A stretch of DNA of 64,000 bases from a virus, in IMG/VR virus record IMGVR_UViG_3300027973_000048, positions 1 to 64,000 of that record; one strand, written 5' to 3'. The notes under the pieces were generated by a model. That model was not told where the DNA came from. It saw nothing but the letters and a program-made list of their open reading frames with translations, and did not search any database. Positions 17,430 to 49,975 of the stretch are shown here, one piece after another; the stretch's first letter is position 1; the number at the start of each line of letters is the position of its first letter. The position numbers and the translations under genes are program-made.

Positions 17430-19367
17430 ATGAAAGATCCAATCCAAGAATCATTAAATAAAATTCGTCTAGTAGAATCACAACAGGTTGATGAATATAG
17501 TTGGGACGAATTCAAACAAGATGCAGGCGATGCAGGTCGTGGTGCCTGGCAAGGTGCAACTTTTGGATTAGGCAATAAAATTGCTGCTGGTGCTAAATCA
17601 GCATTTGGCAAACAATCATATCAGGATTATTTGGATCAAGAAGAAAAAGCTGATGCTGCTGCTAAAGAACGTAGCCCTTGGCTTTATGGTACAGGCGAAC
17701 TGGCTGGCGGAATTGGTGTTCCAGGAGCAGGACTTGCTGGCGTATTAGCTAGAAAGGGTGCTACAAAATTGGCTGGAAAAGCATTAGGAACTGGTGCTCG
17801 AGGTACTAAATGGGCAGAAAGAACTGGAAAAGCTGGCGAAACCGTAGCTAGCGATGCTGTTAATAAATATGGCAGTGATGTTATCCAGCAAACAGGAAAC
17901 AGTTTGCTTGATAAATTGGCTGTTCCAGCGGCCGTTGCAGGTGCTGCGGCAACTGGAGCAGTAGCTGCCAACACTGTGGGTTCAAGAAAACTAGATCCTG
18001 ATCCCAAAGTTCAAGCATTACAAAACAAATTAATTGCCAAAGGTGCAACAATTAAAGCGGACGGTATTATGGGACCAAAAACTCAAGCAGCTATGAAACA
18101 ATATGGCATTACTATGGAATCAAAAAGTAGCTTAATGATGGAATTAATGGATATGGAGGAAGCTAGAGGTAGAGTTCGTCCAAACAGCCGATTCGACGAT
18201 CCAAAATCTTTTAAAGGCGGAAGCGCTTCATCATCGGCACCAGCACCAGAACCAAAATCTGCTCCTGCTCCTGCTCCTGCTCCAGCACCAAAAAAACCTC
18301 GCTATACTGCTTCTGAGATTAATGCTCATAGCGCAGCAGGTGGAAAGTTTGATCCAGCGACAGGAGAGATGATTCCTCTTCCAAAAACTCCAGCTAATAA
18401 TCGAGTTAGAAATAAAGAATTACAGCCAAGTGGGGGAGAATTATCTAGACAACAAAGAACAAGATCTAATTTAAACAGAGAACCAAGAACAACTACTCCC
18501 CCACCTGCAGAGCCATCAAGACTTGGTCAACTAGCAAAAAATACTGCCATAGGATTAGGCACAGCAGGAGCTACAGTCGCTGGCACTGCATTACTTGACA
18601 AATGGTTGAATAGCAAGTCAAACGACCCCGCAAATGATCCCGCTAATGGCGGTGGTTCAGCAGGCGGTGGTTCAGCAGGCGGTGGCGCTGGAGGAGGCGA
18701 AGGCGGAGTTGCTGGAGGGGGTGAAGGTGGTGGTGCCGGCGGTGGTACATCCAAAGGCGGCGGTGGCGGAGCTGGTGGCGAAGGCGGTGGCATCAGCACA
18801 CAAACTGGTCCAGGAGGAAATAGCAGCGGTGACGAAGGAGAACCAATGAGACCTACTGGGAATAGAGCTTTATGGATGCGTAATGAATTAAAAGATCTAA
18901 TGAAAGAAATTTCTACATATAACGACATACCTGAAGCAGTAGCTTTAAATAAAGAATATCAGGAATTTATAAAATCAGATGTTGGACCTACACCTGGACC
19001 TGGACCTACACCTGGACCTACACCTGGACCTACACCTGGACCTACACCTGGACCAAGACCTAGACCAGAACCAAGACCAGAACCAAGACCAGAACCAAGA
19101 CCAGAACCAAGACCAGAACCAACACCTGGACCTACACCTGGACCTGTTGCTCCGCAATCAGACGAATGGTCATGGCAGGATGCTGGCAAATCAACTAAAG
19201 ATGCTTTAAAAGCTGCTGGAAATGCTGCTTGGCAAGGGGCAAAAACTTTTGGTCATAATGTTGCAGATTTTGGAAGAGGATTCATGAAAGAGGGCGAGGA
19301 AAATGGACTAAGAGAAGATCCTGAACTCACAGCTATTATTCATAATGCAGGATTGAATCGTAAATAG
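17430..19367 (+). CDS. Gly/Pro-rich putative virion protein with peptidoglycan-binding-like motif
   Basis: VQALQNKL...ADGIMGPKTQAAM; Gly/Ala hydrophobic helices; similar WxD/DAG segments at both ends. Confidence 0.6.
   Translation: MKDPIQESLNKIRLVESQQVDEYSWDEFKQDAGDAGRGAWQGATFGLGNKIAAGAKSAFGKQSYQDYLDQEEKADAAAKERSPWLYGTGELAGGIGVPGAGLAGVLARKGATKLAGKALGTGARGTKWAERTGKAGETVASDAVNKYGSDVIQQTGNSLLDKLAVPAAVAGAAATGAVAANTVGSRKLDPDPKVQALQNKLIAKGATIKADGIMGPKTQAAMKQYGITMESKSSLMMELMDMEEARGRVRPNSRFDDPKSFKGGSASSSAPAPEPKSAPAPAPAPAPKKPRYTASEINAHSAAGGKFDPATGEMIPLPKTPANNRVRNKELQPSGGELSRQQRTRSNLNREPRTTTPPPAEPSRLGQLAKNTAIGLGTAGATVAGTALLDKWLNSKSNDPANDPANGGGSAGGGSAGGGAGGGEGGVAGGGEGGGAGGGTSKGGGGGAGGEGGGISTQTGPGGNSSGDEGEPMRPTGNRALWMRNELKDLMKEISTYNDIPEAVALNKEYQEFIKSDVGPTPGPGPTPGPTPGPTPGPTPGPRPRPEPRPEPRPEPRPEPRPEPTPGPTPGPVAPQSDEWSWQDAGKSTKDALKAAGNAAWQGAKTFGHNVADFGRGFMKEGEENGLREDPELTAIIHNAGLNRK
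18984..19145 (+). repeat. Coding 12-nt tandem repeats (GPTP)n and (PEPR)n
   Basis: ggacctacacct and ccagaaccaaga arrays. Confidence 0.9.
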
Positions 19368-20311: not shown

Positions 20312-20358
20312 AGCAGGCCATAATCTGCTCAATCGGTATTTGTCTGCCACAAAAGACA
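20312..20358 (+). promoter_or_regulatory. Twin 5-bp-stem / 8-nt-loop hairpins; candidate polymerase translational operator
   Basis: AGCAG-GCCATAAT-CTGCT and TGTCT-GCCACAAA-AGACA just before the AGGAG SD. Confidence 0.6.
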
Positions 20359-20369
20359 TAGGAGAGTTT

Positions 20370-23036
20370 ATGTACGTCGATGCTTATTTCGACCGTGACA
20401 ATGATATTGTCAGGGTTGTGGAACGTAACCGTGATGGTAAAAGAGAATATAAAGATATTCCTGGCCGTTACACGTTATATTATGATGATCCCAAAGGCAA
20501 GTACACTAGCATTTACGGCAATACCGTAAACAAAATCACTTGTAAAACACTAAAGGATTTTCATAAAGAACTAAAGATTAATTCAAATAAAAAAATCTAC
20601 GAAGCAGATATCAATCAAGTATTTGTCTGTTTGAGTGATAACTATCTCAACGCCGATGCGCCCAAACTTAATGTGGCATTTTTTGACATCGAAGTAGACT
20701 TTGATCCAGAACGTGGCTATGCAAGCCCAGATGATGCATTTATGCCTATCACTGCTATCAGTGTACACTTACAATGGCTAGATACACTGATTTGTTTAGC
20801 AGTGCCGCCCAAAGGTATGAGCGTTGAAAAGGCTGAGGAACTAGTCAAGGAACTTCCCAACACATATATCTTCAGTAATGAAGCTGATATGTTGGACACA
20901 TTCTTAAACTTAATTGAAGACGCTGACGTATTAACTGGTTGGAACAGTGAGGGCTACGATATACCCTACACTGTTAACCGTGTGACCAAAGCATTGAGTA
21001 AGGACGATACTAGACGTCTTTGTCTATGGAATCATTATCCTAGACGAAGAGAATATGAAAAATACGGCAAAAAAGCAGTCACTTATGATCTTGTAGGGCG
21101 TGTACACTTAGACAGTTTGGAATTATATCGACGTTACACTTATGAGGAACGTCATACTTACAGATTAGACGCCATTGGTGAAATGGAGATTGGTGAACGT
21201 AAAACTGTCTATGAGGGTACACTGGATCAACTTTATAACAATGACTTTAAAACGTTCATTGAATACAATCGTCAAGACTGTGCTCTATTAGACAAGCTAG
21301 ATAAAAAACTTAAATTTATCGACTTAGCTAATACATTGGCACATGAAAATACTGTGCTACTACAGACTACTATGGGTGCTGTAGCAGTTACTGAGCAGGC
21401 CATTATCAATGAGGCACATCGTAAAGGTGTGGTCGTCCCCAATAGAACTAAAATGAGCGAGCGTGAGGATACTGCGGCAGCAGGTGCTTATGTTGCTCAT
21501 CCCAAAGAAGGCATTCATGACTGGATTGGTTCAGTTGATATTAACAGTCTATATCCATCAGCCATTAGAGCACTTAATATGGGACCAGAAACTATTATTG
21601 GTCAATTGCGTCCCAATCTAACTGATCAATATATCTATGATCAAATAAACGATCATAAGAAAAGTTTTGCTGGTGCTTGGGAAGGTAAATTTGGTTCATT
21701 AGAATATGAAGCAGTAATGAACAAAGAGATTGGCACTGAAATTGTCATTGACTGGGAAAATGGAGAAACTGATGTAGTCAGTGCCGCTGAAACATATAAA
21801 CTAATTTTTGACAGCAATCAACCTTGGATGTTGAGTGCTAACGGTACAATTTTTACTTATGAAAAAGAAGGAGTTATTCCTGGCCTACTAAAACGCTGGT
21901 ATAGTGAACGTAAAGAAATGCAGGCCAAACTAAGGGAGGCCATAAATGCTGGTAACAAAATTGATGAAGAGTATTGGGATAAACGCCAATTGGTTAAGAA
22001 AATTAACCTCAATAGTCTTTACGGTGCTATTCTTAATCCTGGCTGCCGCTTTTTTGATAAGCGTATTGGTCAATCAACCACGCTCACAGGCAGACAAGTT
22101 GCCAAGCACATGGCTGCTAAGGTAAATGAAATCATCACAGGAAAATATGACCATGTAGGCAAAGCTATCATTTACGGTGACACTGACTCAGCATATTTTA
22201 GCGCATATAAAACACTAAAAAATGAAATTGAAAAAGGTACCGTACCTTGGAGTAAGGACAATGTCATCTTCCTATATGATCAAATTGCCGATGAAGTCAA
22301 CGGCACTTTTGCACAATTTATGTTGGATGCTTTTCATTGTCCAAAGAGTCGTGGTGAAGTCATTAAGGCGGGTAGAGAACTAGTGGCTACCAAAGGATTG
22401 TTTATTGCTAAAAAGCGTTATGCAGTATTATATTATGATAAAGAAGGCAAACGCACTGATGTCAATGACAAGCCTGGCAAGATTAAGGCCATGGGACTAG
22501 ACTTGAAGCGCAGTGATACTCCAGAATTTATTCAAGACTTTTTAAGCAAAGTCTTAGAAATGGTTCTAACTGGCAGCGAAGAACGAGAAGTCATTGACTA
22601 TATTAATGAATTCAGAACTGAATTTAAACTTCGTCCTGGTTGGGAGAAGGGCAGTCCTAAACGTGCCAACAATATTACTGAATATCAGATAAAAGAAAAC
22701 AAACCAGGTAAGGCCAATTTACCAGGGCACGTTCGTGCAAGCCTTAATTGGAACAACTTAAAAACTATGAACAGTGACAAATATTCCATGAGTATTACTG
22801 ATGGTGCCAAAGTTGTTGTGTGCAAACTAAAAAACAATCCACTAAATTATACTTCAGTGGCTTATCCAGTGGATGAATTGAGATTACCTCAATGGTTTAA
22901 GGATTTGCCATTTGATCACGATGGTATGGAAAATTCCATCATTGATAACAAATTAGAAAACTTAATCAGTGTGCTAGGATGGAATTTCCAAAGCACTGAA
23001 GAAACGAACACATTCAATAAGTTTTTTAATTTTTAA
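20370..23036 (+). CDS. DNA polymerase family B (T4 gp43-like)
   Basis: Exo motifs FFDIE, GWNS.GYD; pol motifs DINSLYPS, KxxxNSLYG, YGDTDS, KKRY; start chosen by SD at 20360-20364. Confidence 0.96.
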   Translation: MYVDAYFDRDNDIVRVVERNRDGKREYKDIPGRYTLYYDDPKGKYTSIYGNTVNKITCKTLKDFHKELKINSNKKIYEADINQVFVCLSDNYLNADAPKLNVAFFDIEVDFDPERGYASPDDAFMPITAISVHLQWLDTLICLAVPPKGMSVEKAEELVKELPNTYIFSNEADMLDTFLNLIEDADVLTGWNSEGYDIPYTVNRVTKALSKDDTRRLCLWNHYPRRREYEKYGKKAVTYDLVGRVHLDSLELYRRYTYEERHTYRLDAIGEMEIGERKTVYEGTLDQLYNNDFKTFIEYNRQDCALLDKLDKKLKFIDLANTLAHENTVLLQTTMGAVAVTEQAIINEAHRKGVVVPNRTKMSEREDTAAAGAYVAHPKEGIHDWIGSVDINSLYPSAIRALNMGPETIIGQLRPNLTDQYIYDQINDHKKSFAGAWEGKFGSLEYEAVMNKEIGTEIVIDWENGETDVVSAAETYKLIFDSNQPWMLSANGTIFTYEKEGVIPGLLKRWYSERKEMQAKLREAINAGNKIDEEYWDKRQLVKKINLNSLYGAILNPGCRFFDKRIGQSTTLTGRQVAKHMAAKVNEIITGKYDHVGKAIIYGDTDSAYFSAYKTLKNEIEKGTVPWSKDNVIFLYDQIADEVNGTFAQFMLDAFHCPKSRGEVIKAGRELVATKGLFIAKKRYAVLYYDKEGKRTDVNDKPGKIKAMGLDLKRSDTPEFIQDFLSKVLEMVLTGSEEREVIDYINEFRTEFKLRPGWEKGSPKRANNITEYQIKENKPGKANLPGHVRASLNWNNLKTMNSDKYSMSITDGAKVVVCKLKNNPLNYTSVAYPVDELRLPQWFKDLPFDHDGMENSIIDNKLENLISVLGWNFQSTEETNTFNKFFNF

Positions 23037-23039
23037 AAC

Positions 23040-23068
23040 TTGACAGAAGACTTTTTTCTAAATAAAAT
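23040..23068 (+). promoter_or_regulatory. Composite promoter: TTGACA-N17-TAAAAT with overlapping late TAAATA
   Basis: TTGACA 23040-23045, TAAATA 23059-23064, TAAAAT 23063-23068. Confidence 0.75.
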
Positions 23069-23085
23069 TAACAAAGGAGAATATT

Positions 23086-23817
23086 ATGATTAAAGACATT
23101 TTAACAGATATCGTAGCACATACTCATGCATTGGGGTTTTTAACAACCATTAAAATTACCAGTGATGACAAAGAAACTGTAATTGACGGTATCTCTGAAG
23201 ACAAAGGCGTGATCTTTAATGCCAAAATGAAAAATCCAGTAGCCGAATTTGAAGGCACGTTTGGCATGACTAATCTTGACAAATTAAATTTGCATTTGAA
23301 AAGTCCTGAGTACAAAGAAAACGCTACCATTGAAGTGGTAAAAAATTCTAAAGCTAAAGGTTCTGCACCAAGCAATTTATATTTTGAAAATGAAACTGGC
23401 GACTTTACCAATGAATTTAGATTCATGTCAACTCAGACAATTAATTCTGTTATTAAGCCACTTTCATTCAAAGGTGCAAAATGGGATATTTCATTTACCC
23501 CTAGCGTAATTGCTATTCAAAGATTGAAATTACAAGCCCAAGTACATTCTAGTGAAACAAAATTTACTACCACTGTGGATAATAAAAACCTTGTATGCAG
23601 CTTTGGCGATGCCAGCACTCATGCTGGTAACTTTATTTTTCAAACTAATGTTACCAAACTTAAAAATGAACTAAAATGGCCAATTCAACAAATTATATCA
23701 ATCCTAAGTTTGAGTGGTGACTGCACTATGCACATTTCAGATGAAGGACTTATGATGATCACTATTGACAGCGGCATTGGTGAATACAACTATATTTTAC
23801 CAGCACAAACAAAATAA
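23086..23817 (+). CDS. Sliding clamp (gp45-like)
   Basis: 243 aa, alternating beta/alpha pattern, YNYILPA end, directly after polB. Confidence 0.75.
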   Translation: MIKDILTDIVAHTHALGFLTTIKITSDDKETVIDGISEDKGVIFNAKMKNPVAEFEGTFGMTNLDKLNLHLKSPEYKENATIEVVKNSKAKGSAPSNLYFENETGDFTNEFRFMSTQTINSVIKPLSFKGAKWDISFTPSVIAIQRLKLQAQVHSSETKFTTTVDNKNLVCSFGDASTHAGNFIFQTNVTKLKNELKWPIQQIISILSLSGDCTMHISDEGLMMITIDSGIGEYNYILPAQTK

Positions 23818-23826
23818 TAACCCTTC

Positions 23827-25386
23827 ATGAACACTAACCTAACATCAACACAACTAGATTACGCTAAGTTTCTACCAGCAACTAGTACTTTTTATGCTAC
23901 CTTTATAGGTAAACAACGCTATTTCAATTACGTTGACCCAGCACGTATACCTAAAAGTTTTAAAAATGGCATAGAAAGTATGAACTATTTGGATCCAATA
24001 AAAGGTCAATTTTACTATGAATGGTGCCTTTATAGTGCTGGTCATGCTAATTTAGACTTGTCTAAACCCTGTGAAAGGGAGGACATGTTCCGTAATCGTG
24101 ATCGTAATACTAGTTGGGTGTTAGGTGACAGTGGTGGATTCCAAATTGGTAAGGGCAAATGGGAAGGCGATTGGAAAAACCCTAATTGCCCTAAGGCTCA
24201 AAAGAAACGCAGTCAAGTATTAAACTGGATGGACAGTTTAATGGACTATGGTATGAGTTTAGATATTCCCAGTTGGGTTGGGCGTATTCCAGAGAATGCT
24301 CAAAAAACTGGCATCAATGACTTTAACGAAGCTGTACAAGGTACTCATATCAATAATGAATACTTTATACGCAATAGAAATGGTCGTTGCAAGTTTTTAA
24401 ATGTATTACAAGGTGAAGATCACGGTCAAGCAGATAACTGGTATAAAGAAATGAAAAAATATTCTGATCCAAAACAATATCCAGACGCACACTTTAATGG
24501 GTGGGCAATGGGTGGTCAGAATATGTGTGACATTGATCTGGTACTAAGTCGCTTAGTTGAACTGCGATTTGACGGGTTGTTGGAAAAAGGTGTGCAAGAT
24601 TGGATGCACTTTTTGGGAACTAGTAAATTAGACTGGGCTGTCATGCTCACCGACATCCAACGAGCAGTGAGAAAATATCATAATCCTAACTTTACTATTA
24701 GTTTTGACTGTGCCAGTCCATTTTTGGCCACAGCAAATGGTCAAATTTATTATCAGACAGAAACTAAGGATAAATCCAAATGGACTTATAGAATGGGCGC
24801 TGGTGCTGATGATAAAAAATACAAAGCTGATCGTAGATTTTATAAAAACGCAGTGCTACAAGATAAAATTTTGGACATATTTGAAAGCAGTCCTATTATA
24901 GACAAGATTAGACTAAATGAAATCTGTGTTTATGGCCCGGGTGATTTGAATAAAGTTGGCCAAAGTAATAAAACCAGCTGGGATAGTTTTAGTTATGGCA
25001 TTATGATGGGTCATAATGTATGGCATCATATCAATGCTGTACAAGAAGCTAATAGACAATATGACTCAGGAATTAGTCCCAATATGCTATACCCTAAAGG
25101 ATTTACTTCAGAATCATTTAGAGACATTGTTGACGAAATTTTTGCTACTAGTGACAAAGGCAAAGCACTTGATCTAATCAAAAAAAAATATTCATATTTT
25201 TGGAAATACGTTATTGGTACTAGAGGAGTTAGCGGAGATCGTGCTGTTAGCCCAATTCCTAATTATAATAAATTTTTTACTGAATTGAATGTCGAAATTA
25301 AAGAAGAATTTGATGAGGAAGATGCACTCAAACTAGAAGCATTAGTAAATGAATTTGAACATGAGGAGAACAATGAAACCACTTAG
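23827..25386 (+). CDS. dpdA: TGT-fold transglycosylase, DpdA-like (7-deazaguanine insertion into DNA)
   Basis: LGDSGGFQ, LDIP, VLQG, GWAMGG, HFLG and SFDCASP motifs; clustered with folE and queE. Confidence 0.78.
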   Translation: MNTNLTSTQLDYAKFLPATSTFYATFIGKQRYFNYVDPARIPKSFKNGIESMNYLDPIKGQFYYEWCLYSAGHANLDLSKPCEREDMFRNRDRNTSWVLGDSGGFQIGKGKWEGDWKNPNCPKAQKKRSQVLNWMDSLMDYGMSLDIPSWVGRIPENAQKTGINDFNEAVQGTHINNEYFIRNRNGRCKFLNVLQGEDHGQADNWYKEMKKYSDPKQYPDAHFNGWAMGGQNMCDIDLVLSRLVELRFDGLLEKGVQDWMHFLGTSKLDWAVMLTDIQRAVRKYHNPNFTISFDCASPFLATANGQIYYQTETKDKSKWTYRMGAGADDKKYKADRRFYKNAVLQDKILDIFESSPIIDKIRLNEICVYGPGDLNKVGQSNKTSWDSFSYGIMMGHNVWHHINAVQEANRQYDSGISPNMLYPKGFTSESFRDIVDEIFATSDKGKALDLIKKKYSYFWKYVIGTRGVSGDRAVSPIPNYNKFFTELNVEIKEEFDEEDALKLEALVNEFEHEENNETT

Positions 25387-26266
25387 TCTTATCATAGGCA
25401 TGGGCATTGGAGAACTGTACCGATCTGTGCTAGAACAACTGGATCATAGTATCGTAACTGTGGATAGTGATGCCAATAAACATGCCGACTACACCACAGT
25501 AGAACAAGCTCTAGATGACTATGAACAGTTTGATACTGTGCATATTTGTACGCCCAATTATACTCACGAAGCTATTGCATACCTAGTAGCACCAAAAGCT
25601 AAGATAGTTTTTATAGAAAAACCAGGACTAATCACAGCAGATGCTTGGGACAAACTACTAGACACCAATCCCAACACAAGAATCATGATGGTGAAAAACA
25701 ATCAATATCGTGATGAGATTGAAGAATTGCAAACTCTTGCTGCTGCCAGTGTAATTGTCAATGTTAATTGGATTAATCATGATCGTGTACCTAATCCAGG
25801 AACTTGGTTTACTAACAAAGAATTGGCTTTTGGCGGAGTTAGTCGTGATCTTATGCCACATTTACTCAGCTTATGGATCGCTTTAGATTATAACTATGAC
25901 GAGGCAGATCGTGTACGCAAGGATGTTAGACAACGCTGGCAACTAACTGATATTACTAACACAAACTATGGAGCTGTCAACAAAGAAGGAGTGTATAATG
26001 TAGACGACTATTGTAGATTAGGCTTCTTTGGTGAAGAAACTATGTGGACATTCACAGCAGATTGGCGCAGTCTAAACGGAGATGACATACAAATTGAATT
26101 TGTACTGGATGGAGATAAGAAAATATCCAAACCATTAGGTCTTTGCCCCGAAAGTGCCTACAAAAAGATGATTGAAACTGCAATTGCTAACATTGACGAC
26201 AATGTATTTTGGAATGACCAACATTACCAAGATCAATGGATCCATAAAAAAATCGAGAAACTATGA
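25373..26266 (+). CDS. Gfo/Idh/MocA-family NAD(P) oxidoreductase
   Basis: IIGMGIG Rossmann start, ICTPNYTH, FIEKP, GG..RDLMPH; GAGGAG SD. Confidence 0.85.
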   Translation: MKPLSLIIGMGIGELYRSVLEQLDHSIVTVDSDANKHADYTTVEQALDDYEQFDTVHICTPNYTHEAIAYLVAPKAKIVFIEKPGLITADAWDKLLDTNPNTRIMMVKNNQYRDEIEELQTLAAASVIVNVNWINHDRVPNPGTWFTNKELAFGGVSRDLMPHLLSLWIALDYNYDEADRVRKDVRQRWQLTDITNTNYGAVNKEGVYNVDDYCRLGFFGEETMWTFTADWRSLNGDDIQIEFVLDGDKKISKPLGLCPESAYKKMIETAIANIDDNVFWNDQHYQDQWIHKKIEKL

Positions 26267-27165
26267 ATAGAATACTTGTAACTACAGGACAGGGCGAATT
26301 TGTGGAAAGCGAATATGCTTGCCCAAAACTTGACGCCAACGAAATCGAAGTCAAAAGCATTATGACCGGCGTTTGCCGCAGTGACATTGACATGATGCAA
26401 GGAAACTTTGGGCCACTACCTTTGAATATGCAAGGACACGAAGGTTTAGGCAAGGTCACAAAGGTTGGTACAGCAATTTTTGATGTAAGAGTTGGGGATT
26501 TGGTGGCTACTAGAGGTGAGCCTGCTTACGCTGATCAATATACAGTACGCCAATATGAATATGTAAATGTTCCAGAGGCACATCCACGATATATTATTGA
26601 ACCTGTGGCCTGTGGTGTTAACATTGTTAGCCAAGCACTATCAGAATTGCGATGGCGTCAAGGTGCAAATAGTAAATTATTAATACTGGGCAGCGGATTC
26701 CTAGCTTGGGTTGCTTATCATACTATTACAAATCACTATCACTTAAGATTTGACATTGATGTCATAGGCAATTCCAATCAAGACTTGTGGGGTGATCGAC
26801 TAATACCAAACACCGATAAACAATACGACGTCATAATTGATTTGAGCAGCAAAGGTGATGTATTTGATAAGGATTTATACAAAGATTGTGCCTTGATCAT
26901 TATGGCAGCTGCCAAAACACAACCAGTTAGTACTACTTTTGATAAAATGCTTTGGAAAGCTGTCACTATGGTATTTCCTAGTCCACGCAATTCCAAATTT
27001 CATCAATGTATGAGAGATGCTGTTTGGATGATTGAAAATGGCAAACTTGATGTTGACAAGTTCTGGACAAGAAGCTATAATCGTAACACGGAATGGCAAC
27101 AAGCATTTAAAGACGGTGCAGATCGTCCAGCAAATTACAGCAGAGGTTATATAGAATGGCAATAG
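26263..27165 (+). CDS. Zn-dependent medium-chain (alcohol/polyol) dehydrogenase
   Basis: GVCRSD, GHE, EP.ACG, ILGSGFLA. Confidence 0.85.
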   Translation: MNRILVTTGQGEFVESEYACPKLDANEIEVKSIMTGVCRSDIDMMQGNFGPLPLNMQGHEGLGKVTKVGTAIFDVRVGDLVATRGEPAYADQYTVRQYEYVNVPEAHPRYIIEPVACGVNIVSQALSELRWRQGANSKLLILGSGFLAWVAYHTITNHYHLRFDIDVIGNSNQDLWGDRLIPNTDKQYDVIIDLSSKGDVFDKDLYKDCALIIMAAAKTQPVSTTFDKMLWKAVTMVFPSPRNSKFHQCMRDAVWMIENGKLDVDKFWTRSYNRNTEWQQAFKDGADRPANYSRGYIEWQ

Positions 27166-27659
27166 ATACAGAAGGTAGACAAAACGTAGACTACTTTATT
27201 GGCGTGGAAGTAGAACATACTCCAATGAAAGGTGAACGCACATTGTTCGTAGTTGGTGTTAAACCCGTAGAAGAAATTGTACTAAAGATCAATAATCTTC
27301 GTCATATCTATCTTGGCACTAGTCAAAGTTTTAATCCACAAACTTACGAAGATTGGAAGTCGTGGGATCATATGATCAAGAGCTTGTTAGAACTGGGCTA
27401 TTGGGTGACCTTAGACTTTGATGCCAGCTATGCTCGTGACTTTCACGAAGAAGGCTGGAGTGAGAACGATCATTTCATTCCCATGATCAGTGTGAAACTG
27501 CCATACATTGGCTTGTTTAATTACAACACTACTGTTAAAATTGATGACACAACTTGGGGTGATACTAATCCCGGTGTGTGGACTCACAGTCTACATTCAC
27601 TGATGGATCGTAGTAACTTTACCAGCTGGGACAAATACACAGAGGATACACCAATATGA
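27156..27659 (+). CDS. Hypothetical protein in the DNA-modification cluster
   Basis: 167 aa ORF overlapping both neighbours. Confidence 0.7.
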   Translation: MAIDTEGRQNVDYFIGVEVEHTPMKGERTLFVVGVKPVEEIVLKINNLRHIYLGTSQSFNPQTYEDWKSWDHMIKSLLELGYWVTLDFDASYARDFHEEGWSENDHFIPMISVKLPYIGLFNYNTTVKIDDTTWGDTNPGVWTHSLHSLMDRSNFTSWDKYTEDTPI

Positions 27660-28213
27660 GTAAACCAAAAATTTGTAAAATAAAAAAAAGCTTAATTGGT
27701 ACTAAGGTACCACACCGAGAATCTGGACGCACTGGTCAATTCATTGAAGATGCCCATGCAAAATTAGGGATGCCAGTCCAACCAAATGAAGGTCCTGATT
27801 ATCCAGAGTTTGATTTAGAAATGAAGTCCAAATCAAAAGAATCTAAGTCAGCTTATAGTATTGGCACTATGAGTAGATACAATATTGTAAATACGCCATA
27901 TAGCCAATCGACTATAAAACGAAAGCTTCAACAACACTATCATGTTTATCATAAAGATGAAACTATCACAGATCAAATCACATATGATTTTAGGGCAGAT
28001 GATATCCAAGAAGAATTAGAACGAGCCTACGAAACTGCAAGACAAAAAATTATTAATGGGGATTCTGGCTACGTTTCTGGAACAATGTTTGGATACTTTG
28101 AAGAAAGATCTGATAGTCCTGACAATTATCAATTTAGGATTAGTGTAAAAGGAATGGAAGCACTTAAAAATTTAGAAAATCCAAAATTTAGAGAGTTTTT
28201 TGAATTCATATGA
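27656..28213 (+). CDS. Putative PD-(D/E)xK endonuclease, MutH/Sau3AI-like
   Basis: GRTGQFIE...GPDYPEFDLEMKS matches the G..G..xE...PD....xELK pattern. Confidence 0.6.
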   Translation: MSKPKICKIKKSLIGTKVPHRESGRTGQFIEDAHAKLGMPVQPNEGPDYPEFDLEMKSKSKESKSAYSIGTMSRYNIVNTPYSQSTIKRKLQQHYHVYHKDETITDQITYDFRADDIQEELERAYETARQKIINGDSGYVSGTMFGYFEERSDSPDNYQFRISVKGMEALKNLENPKFREFFEFI

Positions 28214-28599
28214 TTATTAAACAAGACGTTCGACCCAATAAAATGATTTGGGTGACCTTCCGTAAAGAAGGCATCCATTGTTATCCGGCAGCCGCCACAG
28301 ATCCCACACTGGCCACAGGTGATGAATATGATGTATCGTTTCTTGCTAACCCTCACCGTCATATATTTCATTTTTGTGTTTGGCTTTCAGTTACCCACAA
28401 TGATCGTGACGTTGAATTTATCCAATTCAAACGCTGGCTCGAAAACCTATTTGCCCAAGGGACTATGACCCTTGACTACAAGAGTTGTGAAATGATGTCA
28501 GATGAACTTTATGACATCATTCACACAAAGTATCCTGACCGTGAAGTCTGGATTGAAGTCTCCGAAGACGGAGAGAATGGTTCGTTTATTAAATATTAA
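28210..28599 (+). CDS. QueD/PTPS-fold paralog, DpdL type (putative CDG decarboxylase)
   Basis: H-x-Y/W, LANPHRHIF (LxxxHRHxF rather than QueD CxxxHGH), SCE, VSEDGENG. Confidence 0.7.
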   Translation: MIIKQDVRPNKMIWVTFRKEGIHCYPAAATDPTLATGDEYDVSFLANPHRHIFHFCVWLSVTHNDRDVEFIQFKRWLENLFAQGTMTLDYKSCEMMSDELYDIIHTKYPDREVWIEVSEDGENGSFIKY

Positions 28600-32290: not shown

Positions 32291-32986
32291 ATGGCTGAAA
32301 AAAATCTAGCACAAGTATTGCGTGATCGTATGCGCCGAGAAGGTAAAAGGTTCTGGGCAGGCGATAATATATCCGATTATGTGGAAGAACCTTTCAAAGA
32401 TGAACTAATTAATGATGCAACCAAAGCATTTGAAAACGTGCTGGACGCATTACTGATTGATAGAGAAAATGATCCTAATAGTAAAGGAACTGCTCGTCGA
32501 TTGGCCAAAATGTACTTTAACGAAATCATGGCAGGACGCTATGATCCCGCTCCCGACGCCACTAGCTTTCCTAACGAAGGCGAAGATGCCTATACTGGCA
32601 TGTTGGTAGTACGCAGTGAACTTCGTAGTATGTGTAGCCATCATCATCAACCAGTTAATGGTGTTGCTTACATAGGAATTATACCAAATGGCAAAGTCAT
32701 CGGATTATCAAAATACACAAGAATTGCTCAGTGGTGTGCCCGTAGAGGAACACTCCAAGAAGAACTGTGCAACGACATCGCTAAAGAAATTAGCCGCGCA
32801 ACCAACAGCAAGAACGTTGGGGTCTATATCCAAGCCACACATGGTTGTTGTGAAAACCGCGGAATTATGGCGCATTCCAGTCTCACACAAACCACAGTCT
32901 TAAAAGGTGCATTCAAAGACGATGTGGGTACTAAGAAGGAGTTTTTTGATAACATTAAACTCCAACAAGATTTTGCACCAAGATAA
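32291..32986 (+). CDS. folE: GTP cyclohydrolase I
   Basis: SMCSHH, IGLSK, LQEE, HGCCENRG. Confidence 0.95.
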   Translation: MAEKNLAQVLRDRMRREGKRFWAGDNISDYVEEPFKDELINDATKAFENVLDALLIDRENDPNSKGTARRLAKMYFNEIMAGRYDPAPDATSFPNEGEDAYTGMLVVRSELRSMCSHHHQPVNGVAYIGIIPNGKVIGLSKYTRIAQWCARRGTLQEELCNDIAKEISRATNSKNVGVYIQATHGCCENRGIMAHSSLTQTTVLKGAFKDDVGTKKEFFDNIKLQQDFAPR

Positions 32987-33780: not shown

Positions 33781-34039
33781 AGTAATGAGTATCCTCCAAG
33801 AGGAATGTGCAGAAGTTATTCAAGCTGTTAGCAAGATTAACCGATTTGGCATGGATAATAGCAAACCTGGCGAAGTCAAAACTAATCGACAACACTTAGA
33901 AGAAGAACTAGGTGATTTAGCTGCTATGATTACTCTACTAGAAATGAACGGTGTAATTAGTCAATTTAATATTGAAAAAGCCAAACTGGCTAAATTTGAC
34001 AAACTTAAAAAATGGTCTACCATATATGAGCAAGATTAA
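33761..34039 (+). CDS. MazG-like NTP pyrophosphohydrolase
   Basis: QEECAEVIQA and LEEELGDL acidic motifs. Confidence 0.8.
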   Translation: MKDSINEVMSILQEECAEVIQAVSKINRFGMDNSKPGEVKTNRQHLEEELGDLAAMITLLEMNGVISQFNIEKAKLAKFDKLKKWSTIYEQD

Positions 34040-34883
34040 AGTCAGCGAACTGTTTTATTCAATCCAAGGGGAAGGACGCTATATGGGTGTCCCTTCTGTA
34101 TTTTTACGCACATTTGGCTGCAACTTTACCTGTGATGGGTTTGGCATGCCACGTGGTGAAAAAAGCCTTGAAAGAGTTAATGTGGCACTAATAGATGAAG
34201 AACAACCTTTTAAAAACTATAAAGACTTGCCTCTTGTATCCACGGGCTGTGATAGTTATGCTAGTTGGGATCCTAACTTCAAGCATCTTAGCCCTTTATA
34301 TGATGTGGGTAATCTTGCAAATGATATTGTGGACCTACTACCACACAAAACGTGGAACGAAGAACACCTTGTCATCACAGGAGGAGAACCTCTCTTAGGT
34401 TGGCAACGTAGCTATCCTGAACTGCTAGACGTAGATTCAATGATAAGATTGCGTCACTTAACTTTTGAAACTAATGGCACTCAAAAATTAACTTCAGATT
34501 TTAAAAATTATTTGATTAATTGGAGTGATAGGCTTCATAAACAAAGAGAAGTCACATTTAGTGTCAGTGCCAAACTGCCAGTGAGTGGAGAAAAGTGGGA
34601 AGATGCTATACTTCCCGAAGTAGTGTGTGACTATGAAAAAGTCGGTTATACTTACTTGAAATTTGTCATAGCAAGCGAAGAGGATTTACTAGATGCACGT
34701 CAAGCAGTCAAACAGTATAGAAATTATGGCTTTAAAGGCCCTGTGTATATTATGCCTGTCGGCGGCATTGAGCGGGTGTACAGTCTTAATAATAGGCGTG
34801 TGGCAGAAATGGCAATGCGAGAAGGATGGCGGTATAGTGACCGACTTCAAGTGCCATTATTTAAAAACGAATGGGGAACCTAA
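34026..34883 (+). CDS. queE: 7-carboxy-7-deazaguanine synthase (radical SAM)
   Basis: ELFYSIQGEG, FLRTFGCNFTC...GCDS, ITGGEP, FETNGT, YSDRLQ. Confidence 0.92.
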   Translation: MSKIKVSELFYSIQGEGRYMGVPSVFLRTFGCNFTCDGFGMPRGEKSLERVNVALIDEEQPFKNYKDLPLVSTGCDSYASWDPNFKHLSPLYDVGNLANDIVDLLPHKTWNEEHLVITGGEPLLGWQRSYPELLDVDSMIRLRHLTFETNGTQKLTSDFKNYLINWSDRLHKQREVTFSVSAKLPVSGEKWEDAILPEVVCDYEKVGYTYLKFVIASEEDLLDARQAVKQYRNYGFKGPVYIMPVGGIERVYSLNNRRVAEMAMREGWRYSDRLQVPLFKNEWGT

Positions 34884-39000: not shown

Positions 39001-40092
39001 ATGTCCGAGATTATTAGTCGCACCGTTGGTCCCCGAGATGCCAAACGTGCAATTCAAAAATGCTTCAATAAACAACGCCCTCTGTTCCTTTGGGGACCTG
39101 CTGGCATTGGTAAATCAGATATTGTTAAACAAATTGGTGAAGACGTCGGTGCTCATGTCATCGACATCCGCTTGAGCCTTTGGGAACCCACTGATATTAA
39201 AGGCGTTCCTTACTTCGATTCTAACAGTGGCAAAATGCTTTGGGCACCTCCCAGCGAACTGCCCGACGAAGAAATGGCCAAAGAACACAAAAAGATCATC
39301 CTCTTTTTGGATGAAATGAACAGTGCTCCTGGTAGCACTCAAGCTGCCGCTTATCAGCTTATTCTTAATCGTCGCATTGGCACTTATCGCTTGCCGGACA
39401 ATGTAGTAATTGTAGCTGCTGGTAACCGTGAAGCAGATCGTGGCGTTACTTATCGTATGCCAGCCCCATTGAGCAACCGCTTTATTCACTTGGAATTGCG
39501 TGTTGATTGGGATGACTACGCTTTTTGGGCTACCGAAAATCGTATCCATAAGGATGTAGTTGGCTTTTTGACTTTCTCAAAGAAAGATCTTCATGACTTT
39601 GATCCTAAGTCTGCTTCAAAGGCATTTGCCACTCCACGTAGCTGGACTTTTGTGTCCGAACTACTGGAGGACGATGACACTGACGAAACCACTCTAACTA
39701 ACCTTATTTCAGGTGCAGTTGGTGAAGGTCTTGCAATCAAATTTATGGCACATCGTAAAATTTCCAGCAAGATGCCAGACCCTACTGACATTTTGAATGG
39801 CAAGGTTAAAAAAATGGAATCGCGTGAGATTAGTGCAATGTACTCTTTGGCAGTTAGCCTCTGTTACGAACTTAAAGATTCCAGCGACAAACGAGCAAAG
39901 ACTTGGGATAAACAAGTCAATAACTTCTTCCGTTTTATCATGGATAATTTTGAAACTGAATTAGTTATTATGAGCACTAAACTTGCTCTTACCCAATATC
40001 AATTGCCTCTGGATCCAGACGAGATTGATTGCTTTGATGAGTTCCATACTAAGTTTGGTAAGTACATTTCGGCAGCTACCGAAAAGAAGTGA
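39001..40092 (+). CDS. MoxR-like AAA+ ATPase
   Basis: GPAGIGKS, LFLDE, AAGNR, PLSNRF, TPRSW. Confidence 0.88.
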   Translation: MSEIISRTVGPRDAKRAIQKCFNKQRPLFLWGPAGIGKSDIVKQIGEDVGAHVIDIRLSLWEPTDIKGVPYFDSNSGKMLWAPPSELPDEEMAKEHKKIILFLDEMNSAPGSTQAAAYQLILNRRIGTYRLPDNVVIVAAGNREADRGVTYRMPAPLSNRFIHLELRVDWDDYAFWATENRIHKDVVGFLTFSKKDLHDFDPKSASKAFATPRSWTFVSELLEDDDTDETTLTNLISGAVGEGLAIKFMAHRKISSKMPDPTDILNGKVKKMESREISAMYSLAVSLCYELKDSSDKRAKTWDKQVNNFFRFIMDNFETELVIMSTKLALTQYQLPLDPDEIDCFDEFHTKFGKYISAATEKK

Positions 40093-40103
40093 AAATTTAC
40101 CAC

Positions 40104-40132
40104 TTGACACCGCCTTCGGGCGGTGTTATACT
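40104..40132 (+). promoter_or_regulatory. sigma70 promoter TTGACA-N17-TATACT whose spacer is a C(UUCG)G hairpin
   Basis: GACACCGCC-TTCG-GGCGGTGTT at 40106-40127. Confidence 0.8.
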
Positions 40133-40156
40133 ATATACATTATATAGGAGAACACT

Positions 40157-41329
40157 ATGCAACATTCATTAGATCCCGTCGTTGACAAAATTATCGTAGC
40201 CCGAGTAGGTCTCCTACTTCGTCATCCATTTTTTGGTAACATGGCTACTCGTCTTAAAGTTATTGATGCTACTGAATGGTGCGCCACTGCTGCCACGGAT
40301 GGTCGGGCACTTTACTACAATCGAAACTTTTTTGAAGACTTGACCAATAAACAAGTTGAATTTGTTATTGGTCACGAAATCCTCCATAACGTTTTTGACC
40401 ATTTGGGTCGTAACGAAGGTCGTAATCGTAAAGTATTCAACATTGCCGCTGACTATTGCGTAAACGGTCAATTGATTCGTGACCATATTGGCGAGCAGCC
40501 TCCAAAGATTCCTATCTTCCATGATCCCCAACATTATGGCAAGAGCGCAGAGCAAGTATACGACGAGCTCATGGAAAAATATGATGATCAAGAACTAGAT
40601 GCATTGGGTAAGCTACTTGACGAACATATTGACTGGGACAAAGAAGGCGAAAATGGACGCCCGCAATATACTAAAGAAGAGCTCAAGGCCATCCGTGACG
40701 AGATCCGTGAAGCCACTATCCAAGCAGCCAACGCCGCAGGTGCAGGCAACACTCCCGCAGGCGTAGCTCGTCTTATTAAGGATCTTACCGAGCCTAAAAT
40801 TAATTGGCGACAATACCTACGTCAACAAATTCAAAGTTTGATCAAGTCTGATTTCAGTTTTACTCGTCCCAATCGCAAAGGTTGGGGGCTAGGTGCTGTA
40901 CTGCCCAGTATGAAAAATGAAGAAACCATTGATGTTTGTGTTGGCTTGGACATGAGCGGAAGTATTACTGACGCAATGGGCAAGGACATGTTGAGCGAAA
41001 TCAAAGGCATCATGGACGAGTACAAAGACTTCAAAGTGAAGATTTGGTGTTTTGACACCAGTGTTTACAATGAACAAGACTTTGACAGCTATGAAAACGA
41101 AATTGAAAACTACGAACTTAAAGGCGGTGGCGGCACTGACTTTGATGCCAATTGGACATATATGAAAGAGCATAATATTACTCCAAAGAAGTTTATTATG
41201 TTTACTGATGGCTATCCATATGGATCTTGGGGTGACGAGCACTATTGCGATACACTGTTTATTATTCATGGTAATCAAAACATTGTTCCTCCCTTTGGAC
41301 AATATGCCTATTACGAAGAAGCTAAGTAA
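40157..41329 (+). CDS. HExxH metallopeptidase-like + VWA domain protein (DUF2201-like)
   Basis: ATDG, HEILH, DMSGS MIDAS, GGGGTDF, FTDG. Confidence 0.87.
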   Translation: MQHSLDPVVDKIIVARVGLLLRHPFFGNMATRLKVIDATEWCATAATDGRALYYNRNFFEDLTNKQVEFVIGHEILHNVFDHLGRNEGRNRKVFNIAADYCVNGQLIRDHIGEQPPKIPIFHDPQHYGKSAEQVYDELMEKYDDQELDALGKLLDEHIDWDKEGENGRPQYTKEELKAIRDEIREATIQAANAAGAGNTPAGVARLIKDLTEPKINWRQYLRQQIQSLIKSDFSFTRPNRKGWGLGAVLPSMKNEETIDVCVGLDMSGSITDAMGKDMLSEIKGIMDEYKDFKVKIWCFDTSVYNEQDFDSYENEIENYELKGGGGTDFDANWTYMKEHNITPKKFIMFTDGYPYGSWGDEHYCDTLFIIHGNQNIVPPFGQYAYYEEAK

Positions 41330-48976: not shown

Positions 48977-49975
48977 TTACGCTTTTTGACGATTACGAAT
49001 CATTGCAATAATGTCGGTTGCGCGACTGTCACTGCCTTTAGATTCTTCTTTTTCTTCAACAGATTTAACTGTTTTAAGAGCAGGTTTAACTGCCTTAGCC
49101 ACAGGCTTTGGCGGTTCATCGTCCATGTCATCGTCCAAGTCTGGTGCAACTGCAACTGCTTTTTTAACAGCCACAGGATCACCAGTGCTTTGAGCAGCAC
49201 CGCTAGGTTTGAAATATTGACCCCAACGTTCCATATCATATTCCTCACCATCTACGCTGGCTTGGAACATTTCCTTGATAACTTTGACTTCTACTTCAGT
49301 AGGTTTCTTAGGTAGGAAATCTTTAAGTTTGAACAGGCCAAATTCATCAATTGCCGCTTGCTCATCTGCACTGAGAGGACGTTCACGACGGCTCCATTTG
49401 CTGGTGCCGTAATCTGCATAACCACCTTTACTGGATTTGATCAGACGAAAATCAACGCCATGAACATAATCAGTAGGAAGGTCTTCCATTTCTGGATCCA
49501 TCAATGCACCTTTGATCAAAGTAAAGATTTGGGGTCCAATAATAAATCTACGAATGGGATTTTCTGATTTTTGATCTTCTTTGAGACCATCTTCAGTGAC
49601 AAAGCCTTGGAACAAATAGCTACGCTTTTTCCAATATTTACGACCCATTGCTTCGAGACTGGGGTCTTTAAACCACGCTCGAACTTCACTGAGTACAGGA
49701 CAGACTTCGCCATACATTTCCATACAAGGAACTTGTACATTGACTTTTTTATTATCTGTCTCGCCTTTCATGCCTGCAAATTCCAGCTTGATCATAGCAC
49801 GTTCTACCCAAAAGAATGTGTTAGAGTCATCGCCGTCTGGGAGGAATCTTACAGCCGATTCACCTCCTTCTTTAAGATTCCAGAAAGGATAAATTGAAAG
49901 ATCGCCGGTGCCTGTTCCGCCGCCTTTTACTTCTTGTTCTTTTAATTTTGCTCGAATTTCTGCTAAAGTTGCCAT
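48977..49975 (-). CDS. Single-stranded DNA-binding protein (gp32-like)
   Basis: VRFLPDG, CPV, YWKKRSY, GYADYGTS, acidic tail. Confidence 0.9.
   Translation of the reverse strand: MATLAEIRAKLKEQEVKGGGTGTGDLSIYPFWNLKEGGESAVRFLPDGDDSNTFFWVERAMIKLEFAGMKGETDNKKVNVQVPCMEMYGEVCPVLSEVRAWFKDPSLEAMGRKYWKKRSYLFQGFVTEDGLKEDQKSENPIRRFIIGPQIFTLIKGALMDPEMEDLPTDYVHGVDFRLIKSSKGGYADYGTSKWSRRERPLSADEQAAIDEFGLFKLKDFLPKKPTEVEVKVIKEMFQASVDGEEYDMERWGQYFKPSGAAQSTGDPVAVKKAVAVAPDLDDDMDDEPPKPVAKAVKPALKTVKSVEEKEESKGSDSRATDIIAMIRNRQKA

Follow-up and report, generated by a model that had tools for sequence, protein, structure and literature searches.

The tails of phage T4 gp43, gp55 and gp33 combine hydrophobic and acidic residues, bind the sliding clamp gp45 and are interchangeable between proteins (PMC2988020), and an internal loop of T4 DNA ligase has this motif too, as LDFLF (PMC6212786). 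Here we analyze a comparable peptide in a viral DNA of 64,000 nucleotides, the first 64 kb of a 74-kb contig (IMG/VR record IMGVR_UViG_3300027973_000048), which we call the window as a whole. The peptide recurs near the C-termini of a family B DNA polymerase (PolB), of a candidate DNA-guanine transglycosylase resembling DpdA and of a candidate nuclease of the PD-(D/E)xK type, and from the comparison of tail sequences it is probably a linear docking motif for the PCNA/gp45-type clamp that the phage itself is predicted to encode.

Clamp-binding motifs, and the clamp tethering of eukaryotic DNA-marking enzymes, are already known; the PCNA-interacting peptide (PIP) box, Q-x-x-[ILM]-x-x-[FY]-[FY], is found on DNA-modifying and repair enzymes such as DNMT1 and UNG2. 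The arrangement proposed here is like that of the eukaryotic and archaeal PIP-box enzymes in that a marking or repair enzyme would be tethered to the clamp to act on new DNA, and unlike it in that the reaction would be base exchange, not methyl transfer or excision. It is also like the proposal made for T4 alpha-glucosyltransferase and gp45, in which a phage hypermodification enzyme works at the fork via the clamp; that case rested on in vitro data, and ours rests on a conserved, co-varying motif. What would be new are the two client families, transglycosylase and MutH-like nuclease, which are not among the known ligands of gp45. In full-text literature searches we found no publication that connects sliding clamps with DpdA or 7-deazaguanine enzymes, and a comparative review of jumbo phages notes both a PCNA-type clamp and the deazaguanine system of PA5oct and draws no link between them (PMC7824862).

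A shared C-terminal peptide at the replication locus

An earlier note made from the letters of the window had reported three C-terminal peptides with a clamp gene between the first two. On re-reading the sequence we found them where it had placed them, at 23010-23036 (PolB), 25261-25284 (a protein of 519 amino acids) and 28184-28213 (a protein of 185 amino acids). The genes and peptides are as follows:

20340..23036, plus strand: family B DNA polymerase, T4/RB69 gp43-like, 898 amino acids (Pfam DNA_pol_B, 3e-36; PHROG 262, 4e-202)
23010..23033, plus strand: PolB C-terminal peptide TFNKFFNF (family consensus N-T-F-x-x-[LF]-F-[DE]-F at the extreme C-terminus)
23827..25386, plus strand: candidate DpdA-like DNA-guanine transglycosylase, 519 amino acids, with a tRNA-guanine transglycosylase (TGT) fold in an AlphaFold2 (AF2) model of predicted local distance difference test score (pLDDT) 87
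25264..25278, plus strand: motif Y480-N-K-F-F484 in the flexible tail of the transglycosylase (N479-YNKFF-TE486 spans 25261-25284 and is followed by an acidic tail)
27656..28213, plus strand: candidate MutH/Sau3AI-like PD-(D/E)xK nuclease, 185 amino acids, from ESM Atlas neighbors and sequence
28187..28201, plus strand: motif F178-R-E-F-F182 at the C-terminus of the nuclease, which ends KFREFFEFI (28184-28213)

Across the approximately 90 open reading frames (ORFs) of the entire 74-kb contig the pattern [FY]xxFF occurs six times. Two occurrences lie within the final 12 residues of a protein, where the internal rate would predict 0.12 (Poisson P ~0.007), a third lies 40 residues before a C-terminus, and all three of these C-terminal-region cases fall within 8 kb. 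The motif is conserved in about 60 related viral contigs; the transglycosylase is encoded at 67 IMG/VR loci, most of which have PolB and the clamp upstream. Conservation in homologs had been named by the earlier note as a check, and the alignments and related loci bear it out for PolB, the transglycosylase and the nuclease alike. The generalized motif is [FY]-x-x-[LFM]-F-(D/E), the double Phe being peculiar to the lineage of the window, so that of the pattern first suggested, [FY]-x-x-F-F, the shared tail peptide is real, whereas what defines it is h-x-x-[LFM]-F together with an acidic residue, not F-F. The same note had allowed that the match could be a by-product of AT-rich codons. Judged from the aligned sequences, this explanation fails, because relatives hold Leu and Asp or Glu within the motif and the key Phe is invariant.

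The motif in the tails of the three proteins

The alignment of the PolB thumb domain to RB69 gp43 (903 residues) stops at residue 850, leaving 53 residues in either protein, and the peptide of this replicative polymerase occupies the place of the gp43 tail. At the related loci, all PolB C-termini that are complete have N-T-F-x-x-[LF]-F-[DE]-F or a near variant as their last residues. The chemistry of the tail is like that of the T4 gp43 tail EKASLDFLFG (PMC6212786), and the arrangement resembles that of T4 and RB69 in its short hydrophobic-plus-acidic peptide, shared by the polymerase and other proteins, either terminal or internal, and in its trimeric PCNA-fold type of clamp. The patterns differ in detail, F-x-x-L-F-[DE]-F in the window family as opposed to L-D-F-L-F-G in T4 gp43. 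At some related loci the PolB gene is split into two ORFs about 1.5-2 kb apart (L014:1974-6100, L059:1-5107 and L073:1-2831), and the C-terminal fragment retains the tail motif; in PA5oct an annotated Hef-like homing endonuclease occupies the corresponding gap.

In an alignment of 28 transglycosylases down to 51% identity, F484 is invariant, and the column entropies at positions 480, 483 and 484 are 0.89, 0.97 and 0.0 bits, compared with 2-3 bits in neighboring columns. All complete transglycosylases of the related loci retain [FY]-x-x-[LFM]-F-[DE], in a tail whose pLDDT is 48-74 from about residue 465 onward. The motif is internal in most lineages, at the extreme C-terminus in others (ending QFNNLFDFS or TFESLFEV) and duplicated in one clade (KFDAMFDLD plus a terminal NLFDFGE). 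Because it forms a conserved island in a low-pLDDT tail and because it shifts in position and is duplicated, the motif appears to behave as linear docking motifs do, and not as a folded element would. The acidic tail holds a further conserved segment:

25333..25347, plus strand: second conserved island K-L-[DE]-x-L-E, amino acids 503-507 of the transglycosylase, with low entropy at 503, 506 and 507

A longer form of this island, [FL]-D-E-x-x-K-L-[DE]-x-L-E, is kept from the contig of the window to PA5oct; no other conserved protein family has the pattern, and in one clade it is replaced by the second terminal NLFDFG motif. It is possibly a second docking helix, or it may serve autoinhibition through DNA mimicry.

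In the ESM Atlas, the clusters neighboring the 185-residue protein are those of MutH/Sau3AI and MvaI_BcnI (scores 0.93-0.95). The D...(D/E)-x-K catalytic motif is made up of the invariant D48 and K57 and of E55, which at least 90% of sequences share, and one member of the family matches Pfam MutH at 2.9e-4; the window protein has no Pfam hit of its own. The earlier description of this protein as a PD-(D/E)xK enzyme is thus supported, and it can be called a candidate nuclease of the MutH/Sau3AI type. Like MutH, Sau3AI and MvaI/BcnI, enzymes that cut according to the modification state of DNA, it has the D...E-x-K signature and is small and probably monomeric; it is unlike them in belonging to a viral family known from uncultured contigs only and in having a tail peptide like that of the polymerase. 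In the case of MutH, activation comes from MutL and not from tethering to a clamp. A profile search collected 309 cluster representatives of the family, all uncultured, and tblastn against GenBank phages gave no match. F182 is one of six invariant columns, together with D48 and K57, in an alignment of 60 sequences with 33% mean identity, and the tail logo of the family reads A-K-S-T-[FY]-N-x-L-F-[ED], with S-T-[FY]-x-x-L-F-[ED] as the usual ending across the 309 clusters. The motif lies in the last 12 residues of 66% of the 138 full-length representatives, versus 2.6% of 1388 background phage proteins, a rate counted with the loose pattern [FYLMIW]xx[LFMI]F at phage C-termini.

The nuclease has no counterpart in four complete or near-complete relatives (316-345 kb). 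Between it and the transglycosylase, at 25349-27165, the window encodes a Gfo/Idh/MocA oxidoreductase and a Zn-dehydrogenase-like protein, and this pair is likewise missing from the four relatives and present together with the nuclease at loci L147 and L150. Since they are jointly absent or jointly present, we regard the nuclease and the pair as an accessory module that may further tailor the modified base. A protein of 158 amino acids without a family hit (L077:19203-19679; G001 79203-79679, minus strand) ends QFNTIFE, much like the tails of the nuclease family, and no sequence similarity between the two proteins was detected.

Specificity of the motif among protein families

To place these tails among all proteins of the group, the ORFs of the contig were clustered with those of the four relatives, giving 200 families present in at least three of the five genomes. 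Just two of the 200 families, PolB and the transglycosylase, had the motif [FY]xx[LFM]F[DESTNG] among their final 60 residues in 75% or more of the genomes, and we found no further convincing clamp client among the five genomes. Radical-SAM/SPASM paralogs were tried and set aside, as their tails carry a segment of their own, 'RRG...FPEL'; two small families ending in hydrophobic residues were unconvincing, and the tails of the GTP cyclohydrolase FolE were inconsistent between genomes. A degenerate DNA pattern scan of the five genomes for LF[DE]F performed no better than the control. The radical-SAM/SPASM paralogs number 8-10 in each of the complete relatives (G001-G004); they are about 400 amino acids long, often in tandem (L090:1-6700 and neighbors, that is, G001 316-326 kb), with a conserved C-terminal 'RRG...FPE[LM]', and at locus L043 one copy lies just downstream of the transglycosylase.

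Vibrio phage GR7B, which encodes a distant TGT-domain protein and no detectable PolB of the window type, served as a negative control. Its TGT-domain protein (L152:2608-4224) ends in a Lys/Ala-rich tail of about 50 residues and not in a hydrophobic-acidic motif; the Lys-rich tail may be an alternative way to hold DNA.

The predicted clamp and its co-variation with the tails

The gene between those of PolB and the transglycosylase encodes the following elements:

23086..23817, plus strand: sliding clamp protomer, two-domain PCNA/gp45 fold, 243 amino acids (AF2, Foldseek and VIA-align)
23452..23487, plus strand: interdomain connecting loop, amino acids 123-134 (K124, S127 and K129 here), between helix 116-122 and strand 135-137, with lower pLDDT
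23785..23805, plus strand: C-terminal strand Y-N-Y-I-L-P-A, the presumed wall of the peptide pocket, by comparison with PCNA

In searches of sequence families this protein had no Pfam hit, including the Pfam families of gp45. Its model has a pLDDT of 90 (AF2), the top Foldseek hits are all PCNAs (E 8e-12), and VIA-align gives Z 17-18 for PCNAs and Z 16.3 for T4 gp45 (6drt_A), with a root-mean-square deviation of 3.2 Å. The predicted fold identifies the protein as a PCNA/gp45-type sliding clamp, in agreement with the earlier assignment at 23086..23817, and all relatives examined have homologous clamps. In PCNA the peptide pocket is made up of the interdomain loop and the C-terminal strand, and by analogy the peptide would dock in the pocket between the same two elements here. 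K124, K127 and K129 of the loop are conserved in relatives, and in the strand Y234, Y236 and P239 are invariant. We found no convincing candidate for a clamp loader within the window. A MoxR-like AAA ATPase, paired with a DUF2201 metallopeptidase/VWA protein at 39001-41329, matches the clamp-loader PHROG 168 at 1e-6, a weak match on account of which we do not consider it a convincing loader.

The tests of co-variation were post hoc and only partly corrected for relatedness. At the variable motif positions PolB and the transglycosylase were more similar within genomes than in permuted pairs (P = 0.017, with no phylogenetic correction), and the same pentapeptide occurs in both proteins of single genomes (FESLF, FTSLF and FNKFF). 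In distant cultured relatives the two proteins show a joint change in the form of the motif. PolB of Vibrio phage 2.275.O ends NNTDLFDW and the transglycosylase of that phage ends NNNDLFGW; the corresponding tails of PA5oct are AHFDSLFGW, at the end of PolB, and NSFNSLFDVD, which precedes the acidic tail of the transglycosylase EST35_0316. Among the first 67 loci, Phe at position 4 of the PolB motif was always paired with Phe in the transglycosylase, in two separate lineages.

The strongest co-variation signal is the joint change of tails and clamp at loci L040 and L041. These are the only loci with Lys in place of Asp or Glu after LF, and they have it in both tails (a terminal LFKVV, and LFKQ). 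Of the 96 columns conserved in the clamp, only 6 set theirs apart from the other 65, and the changes include K124E, K127M and K129S, that is, all three loop lysines, which are lost together only in this lineage, as well as L238I in the C-terminal strand; the chance that such changes hit the three lysine columns is about 1e-4, calculated post hoc. In the lineage of the window FF is followed by Asn in PolB and by Thr in the transglycosylase, and position 127 of the clamp is Ser. The C-terminal strand is altered in lineages with an altered motif (I237M, L238I), and in the clamp of Vibrio phage 2.275.O, which is 33% identical, the strand Y-x-Y-I-L-P-A reads L-S-F-V-F-P-G.

Identity of the transglycosylase

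Searches of the 519-residue protein in Pfam, NCBIfam and PDB sequences gave no hit, and its sole sequence match was a weak tblastn hit (2e-4) to a phage 'TGT domain' protein. Searches of this kind were equally unproductive for the clamp and the nuclease, and the identities come from predicted folds for the clamp and the transglycosylase and from ESM Atlas features for the nuclease. The best 50 Foldseek matches of the transglycosylase model are all tRNA-guanine transglycosylases (probability 1.0, E 2e-6). D101-S-G-G-F105, D146 and D294 are invariant in the 28-sequence alignment, and in order along the sequence they may correspond to D95, F99, D130 and D256 of Salmonella DpdA, the three active-site Asp residues and the gating Phe of that enzyme (PMC10164549). 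Two genes of the 7-deazaguanine pathway lie downstream in the window:

32291..32986, plus strand: GTP cyclohydrolase I (FolE), the first step of 7-deazaguanine synthesis (Pfam GTP_cyclohydroI, 5e-41)
33972..34883, plus strand: QueE-like radical SAM enzyme (PHROG 2076, 1.2e-48)

Homologs of the transglycosylase also adjoin QueF, QueE or FolE in Vibrio phage 2.275.O, PA5oct and Phosso, and PA5oct DNA is resistant to enzymes that cut G-containing sites (PMC12191111), which bears indirectly on guanine exchange in DNA. From the predicted TGT fold, the DSGGF motif and the nearby 7-deazaguanine genes, 'DpdA-like', the term of the earlier note, is a fair description as far as fold and gene context go; membership of the sequence family is not supported. 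The protein is like bacterial and phage DpdA in its TGT fold, the general-acid motif DSGGF, the order of two more invariant Asp residues and its preQ0-pathway neighbors (PMC10164549, PMC6884629), and unlike known DpdA in its larger size and in a C-terminal tail with two linear motifs.

Beside the modification genes, at 28210-28599, a conserved gene encodes a protein of 129 amino acids (PHROG 17812), which is kept in the four complete relatives searched, in Phosso and in PA5oct. An H-x-H motif in this protein recalls QueD/6-pyruvoyl-tetrahydropterin synthase, with no confirming family hit. Just upstream of the replication block, at 17430-19367, lies the gene for a 645-residue protein with low-complexity Gly/Ala-rich stretches and the repeats (PGPT)n and (PEPR)n.

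Alternative explanations

We favor docking on the phage's own clamp because the position and chemistry of the PolB tail, the cognate clamp next door, the behavior of the motif, its specificity and its co-variation point the same way. Conservation and specificity would fit any common partner, so the peptide might instead dock on another hub of the replisome, such as a single-stranded DNA-binding protein (SSB), a helicase/primase or the clamp loader. The window does encode an SSB (48977-49975) and a RecA/UvsX-like protein, and in T7 and E. coli SSB-polymerase and helicase-polymerase contacts are made through C-terminal tails that are acidic or aromatic. This is nevertheless unlikely, given that the homologous gp43 tail binds gp45 in T4 and RB69, that the charge reversal in both tails coincides with the loss of three clamp loop lysines and that the C-terminal strand of the clamp differs in the phage with the DLF[DG]W form of the motif. 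It is very improbable that the target is the beta clamp of the host, bound through a QxxLF-like peptide. Several transglycosylase tails do read Q-F-N-N-L-F, which is close to bacterial beta-clamp-binding peptides, but the Gln of the bacterial motif (Q-L-[SD]-L-F or Q-x-x-L-x-F) is present in some transglycosylase tails only, position 479 having an entropy of 2.05 bits and PolB having Thr there; moreover, the phage encodes its own clamp beside PolB, and the motif tracks phage lineage and clamp changes, in contrast to the strong conservation of the bacterial motif and pocket. The co-variation with the clamp therefore weakens both of these alternatives. Nor is the peptide a canonical PIP box, of which the h-x-x-F-F of the window matches the second half: it lacks a conserved Gln, and most relatives have Leu as the seventh residue.

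The likeness of the tails might also be convergence or composition, each serving a role specific to its protein, as a structural C-terminal helix in the nuclease and as an autoinhibitory or DNA-mimicking tail in the transglycosylase, with no shared partner. The second acidic helix of the transglycosylase could indeed fold back onto a basic DNA-binding surface, and the loose pattern reaches its 2.6% of phage C-termini by chance. Composition, however, cannot account for a Phe that never varies in 28 to 60 diverse sequences, nor is mere convergence easily squared with a motif that is confined to two conserved families, takes the same divergent form in both proteins of a distant phage, gives identical pentapeptides within single genomes and shifts within the tail yet is never lost. 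We hold this explanation to be improbable, and the specificity result weakens it at least for PolB and the transglycosylase. It may hold for the nuclease, in which the motif comes immediately after the last predicted helix.

Several observations weigh against docking on the phage clamp. The nuclease motif, which abuts that helix and varies as little as the catalytic residues, could belong to the fold. In Phosso the transglycosylase ends IVEGLF, a weak match to the motif. L147 has LF in PolB and FF in the transglycosylase and nuclease, so that the Leu/Phe pairing is not strict. At clamp column 222 the two 'FF' lineages have L or I in place of A, a change that was considered as compensatory and rejected, both because L147 breaks the FF/LF rule and because the lineage-specific columns overlap no more than expected by chance. 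In the T4-like phage nt-1 the tails differ, gp43 ending TLESFFG and DpdA2 ending AEYPDFKS, and the tether would therefore belong to the transglycosylase family of the window and not to phage DpdA generally. Finally, a recent preprint did not reproduce the interaction of T4 alpha-glucosyltransferase with gp45, either in vitro or in vivo (bioRxiv 10.64898/2025.12.06.692756), so the sole phage precedent for clamp-coupled hypermodification is now disputed.

Proposed mechanism and significance

If the peptide docks on the phage clamp, the motif of PolB would confer processivity, while the transglycosylase, through the motif in its flexible tail, and the nuclease, through its C-terminal motif, would be carried by clamps sitting on freshly copied phage DNA, at the fork or left behind it. 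The tether would reduce the transglycosylase's search for target guanines from three dimensions to one, along the new duplex, with guanine being swapped for a 7-deazaguanine base during or just after replication, and we infer that tethering would raise the completeness of modification. Salmonella DpdA requires the ATPase DpdB for preQ0 insertion (PMC10164549), and in the window phage the clamp may take a helper role in its place. The clamp-bound nuclease could cut or nick unmodified DNA, or discriminate between strands. It is conceivable, although a doubtful extension of the model, that a clamp-tethered transglycosylase and a MutH-like nickase make up a replication-coupled mark-and-check system acting on briefly hemi-modified DNA. 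The nickase, oriented by the clamp, would read the missing 7-deazaguanine to pick the nascent strand, as in mismatch repair or proofreading, or alternatively would destroy unmodified DNA bearing phage clamps. Such a system would be an analog of Dam and MutH with a hypermodified base and a PCNA-type clamp.

The analysis also defines a large, uncharacterized viral family of MutH-like nucleases, which are apparent clamp clients, and scanning for the tail peptide of the polymerase itself can reveal candidate clamp partners in uncultured phages. The question addressed is how post-replicative base exchange reaches enough guanines in time in a genome of several hundred kb. A conserved, co-varying tail of the clamp-binding type on the transglycosylase offers a concrete and easily testable mechanism, for which PA5oct is a cultivable model with the same architecture. 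If the proposal is correct, scanning while bound to the clamp would help a base-exchange enzyme to modify a large genome fast.

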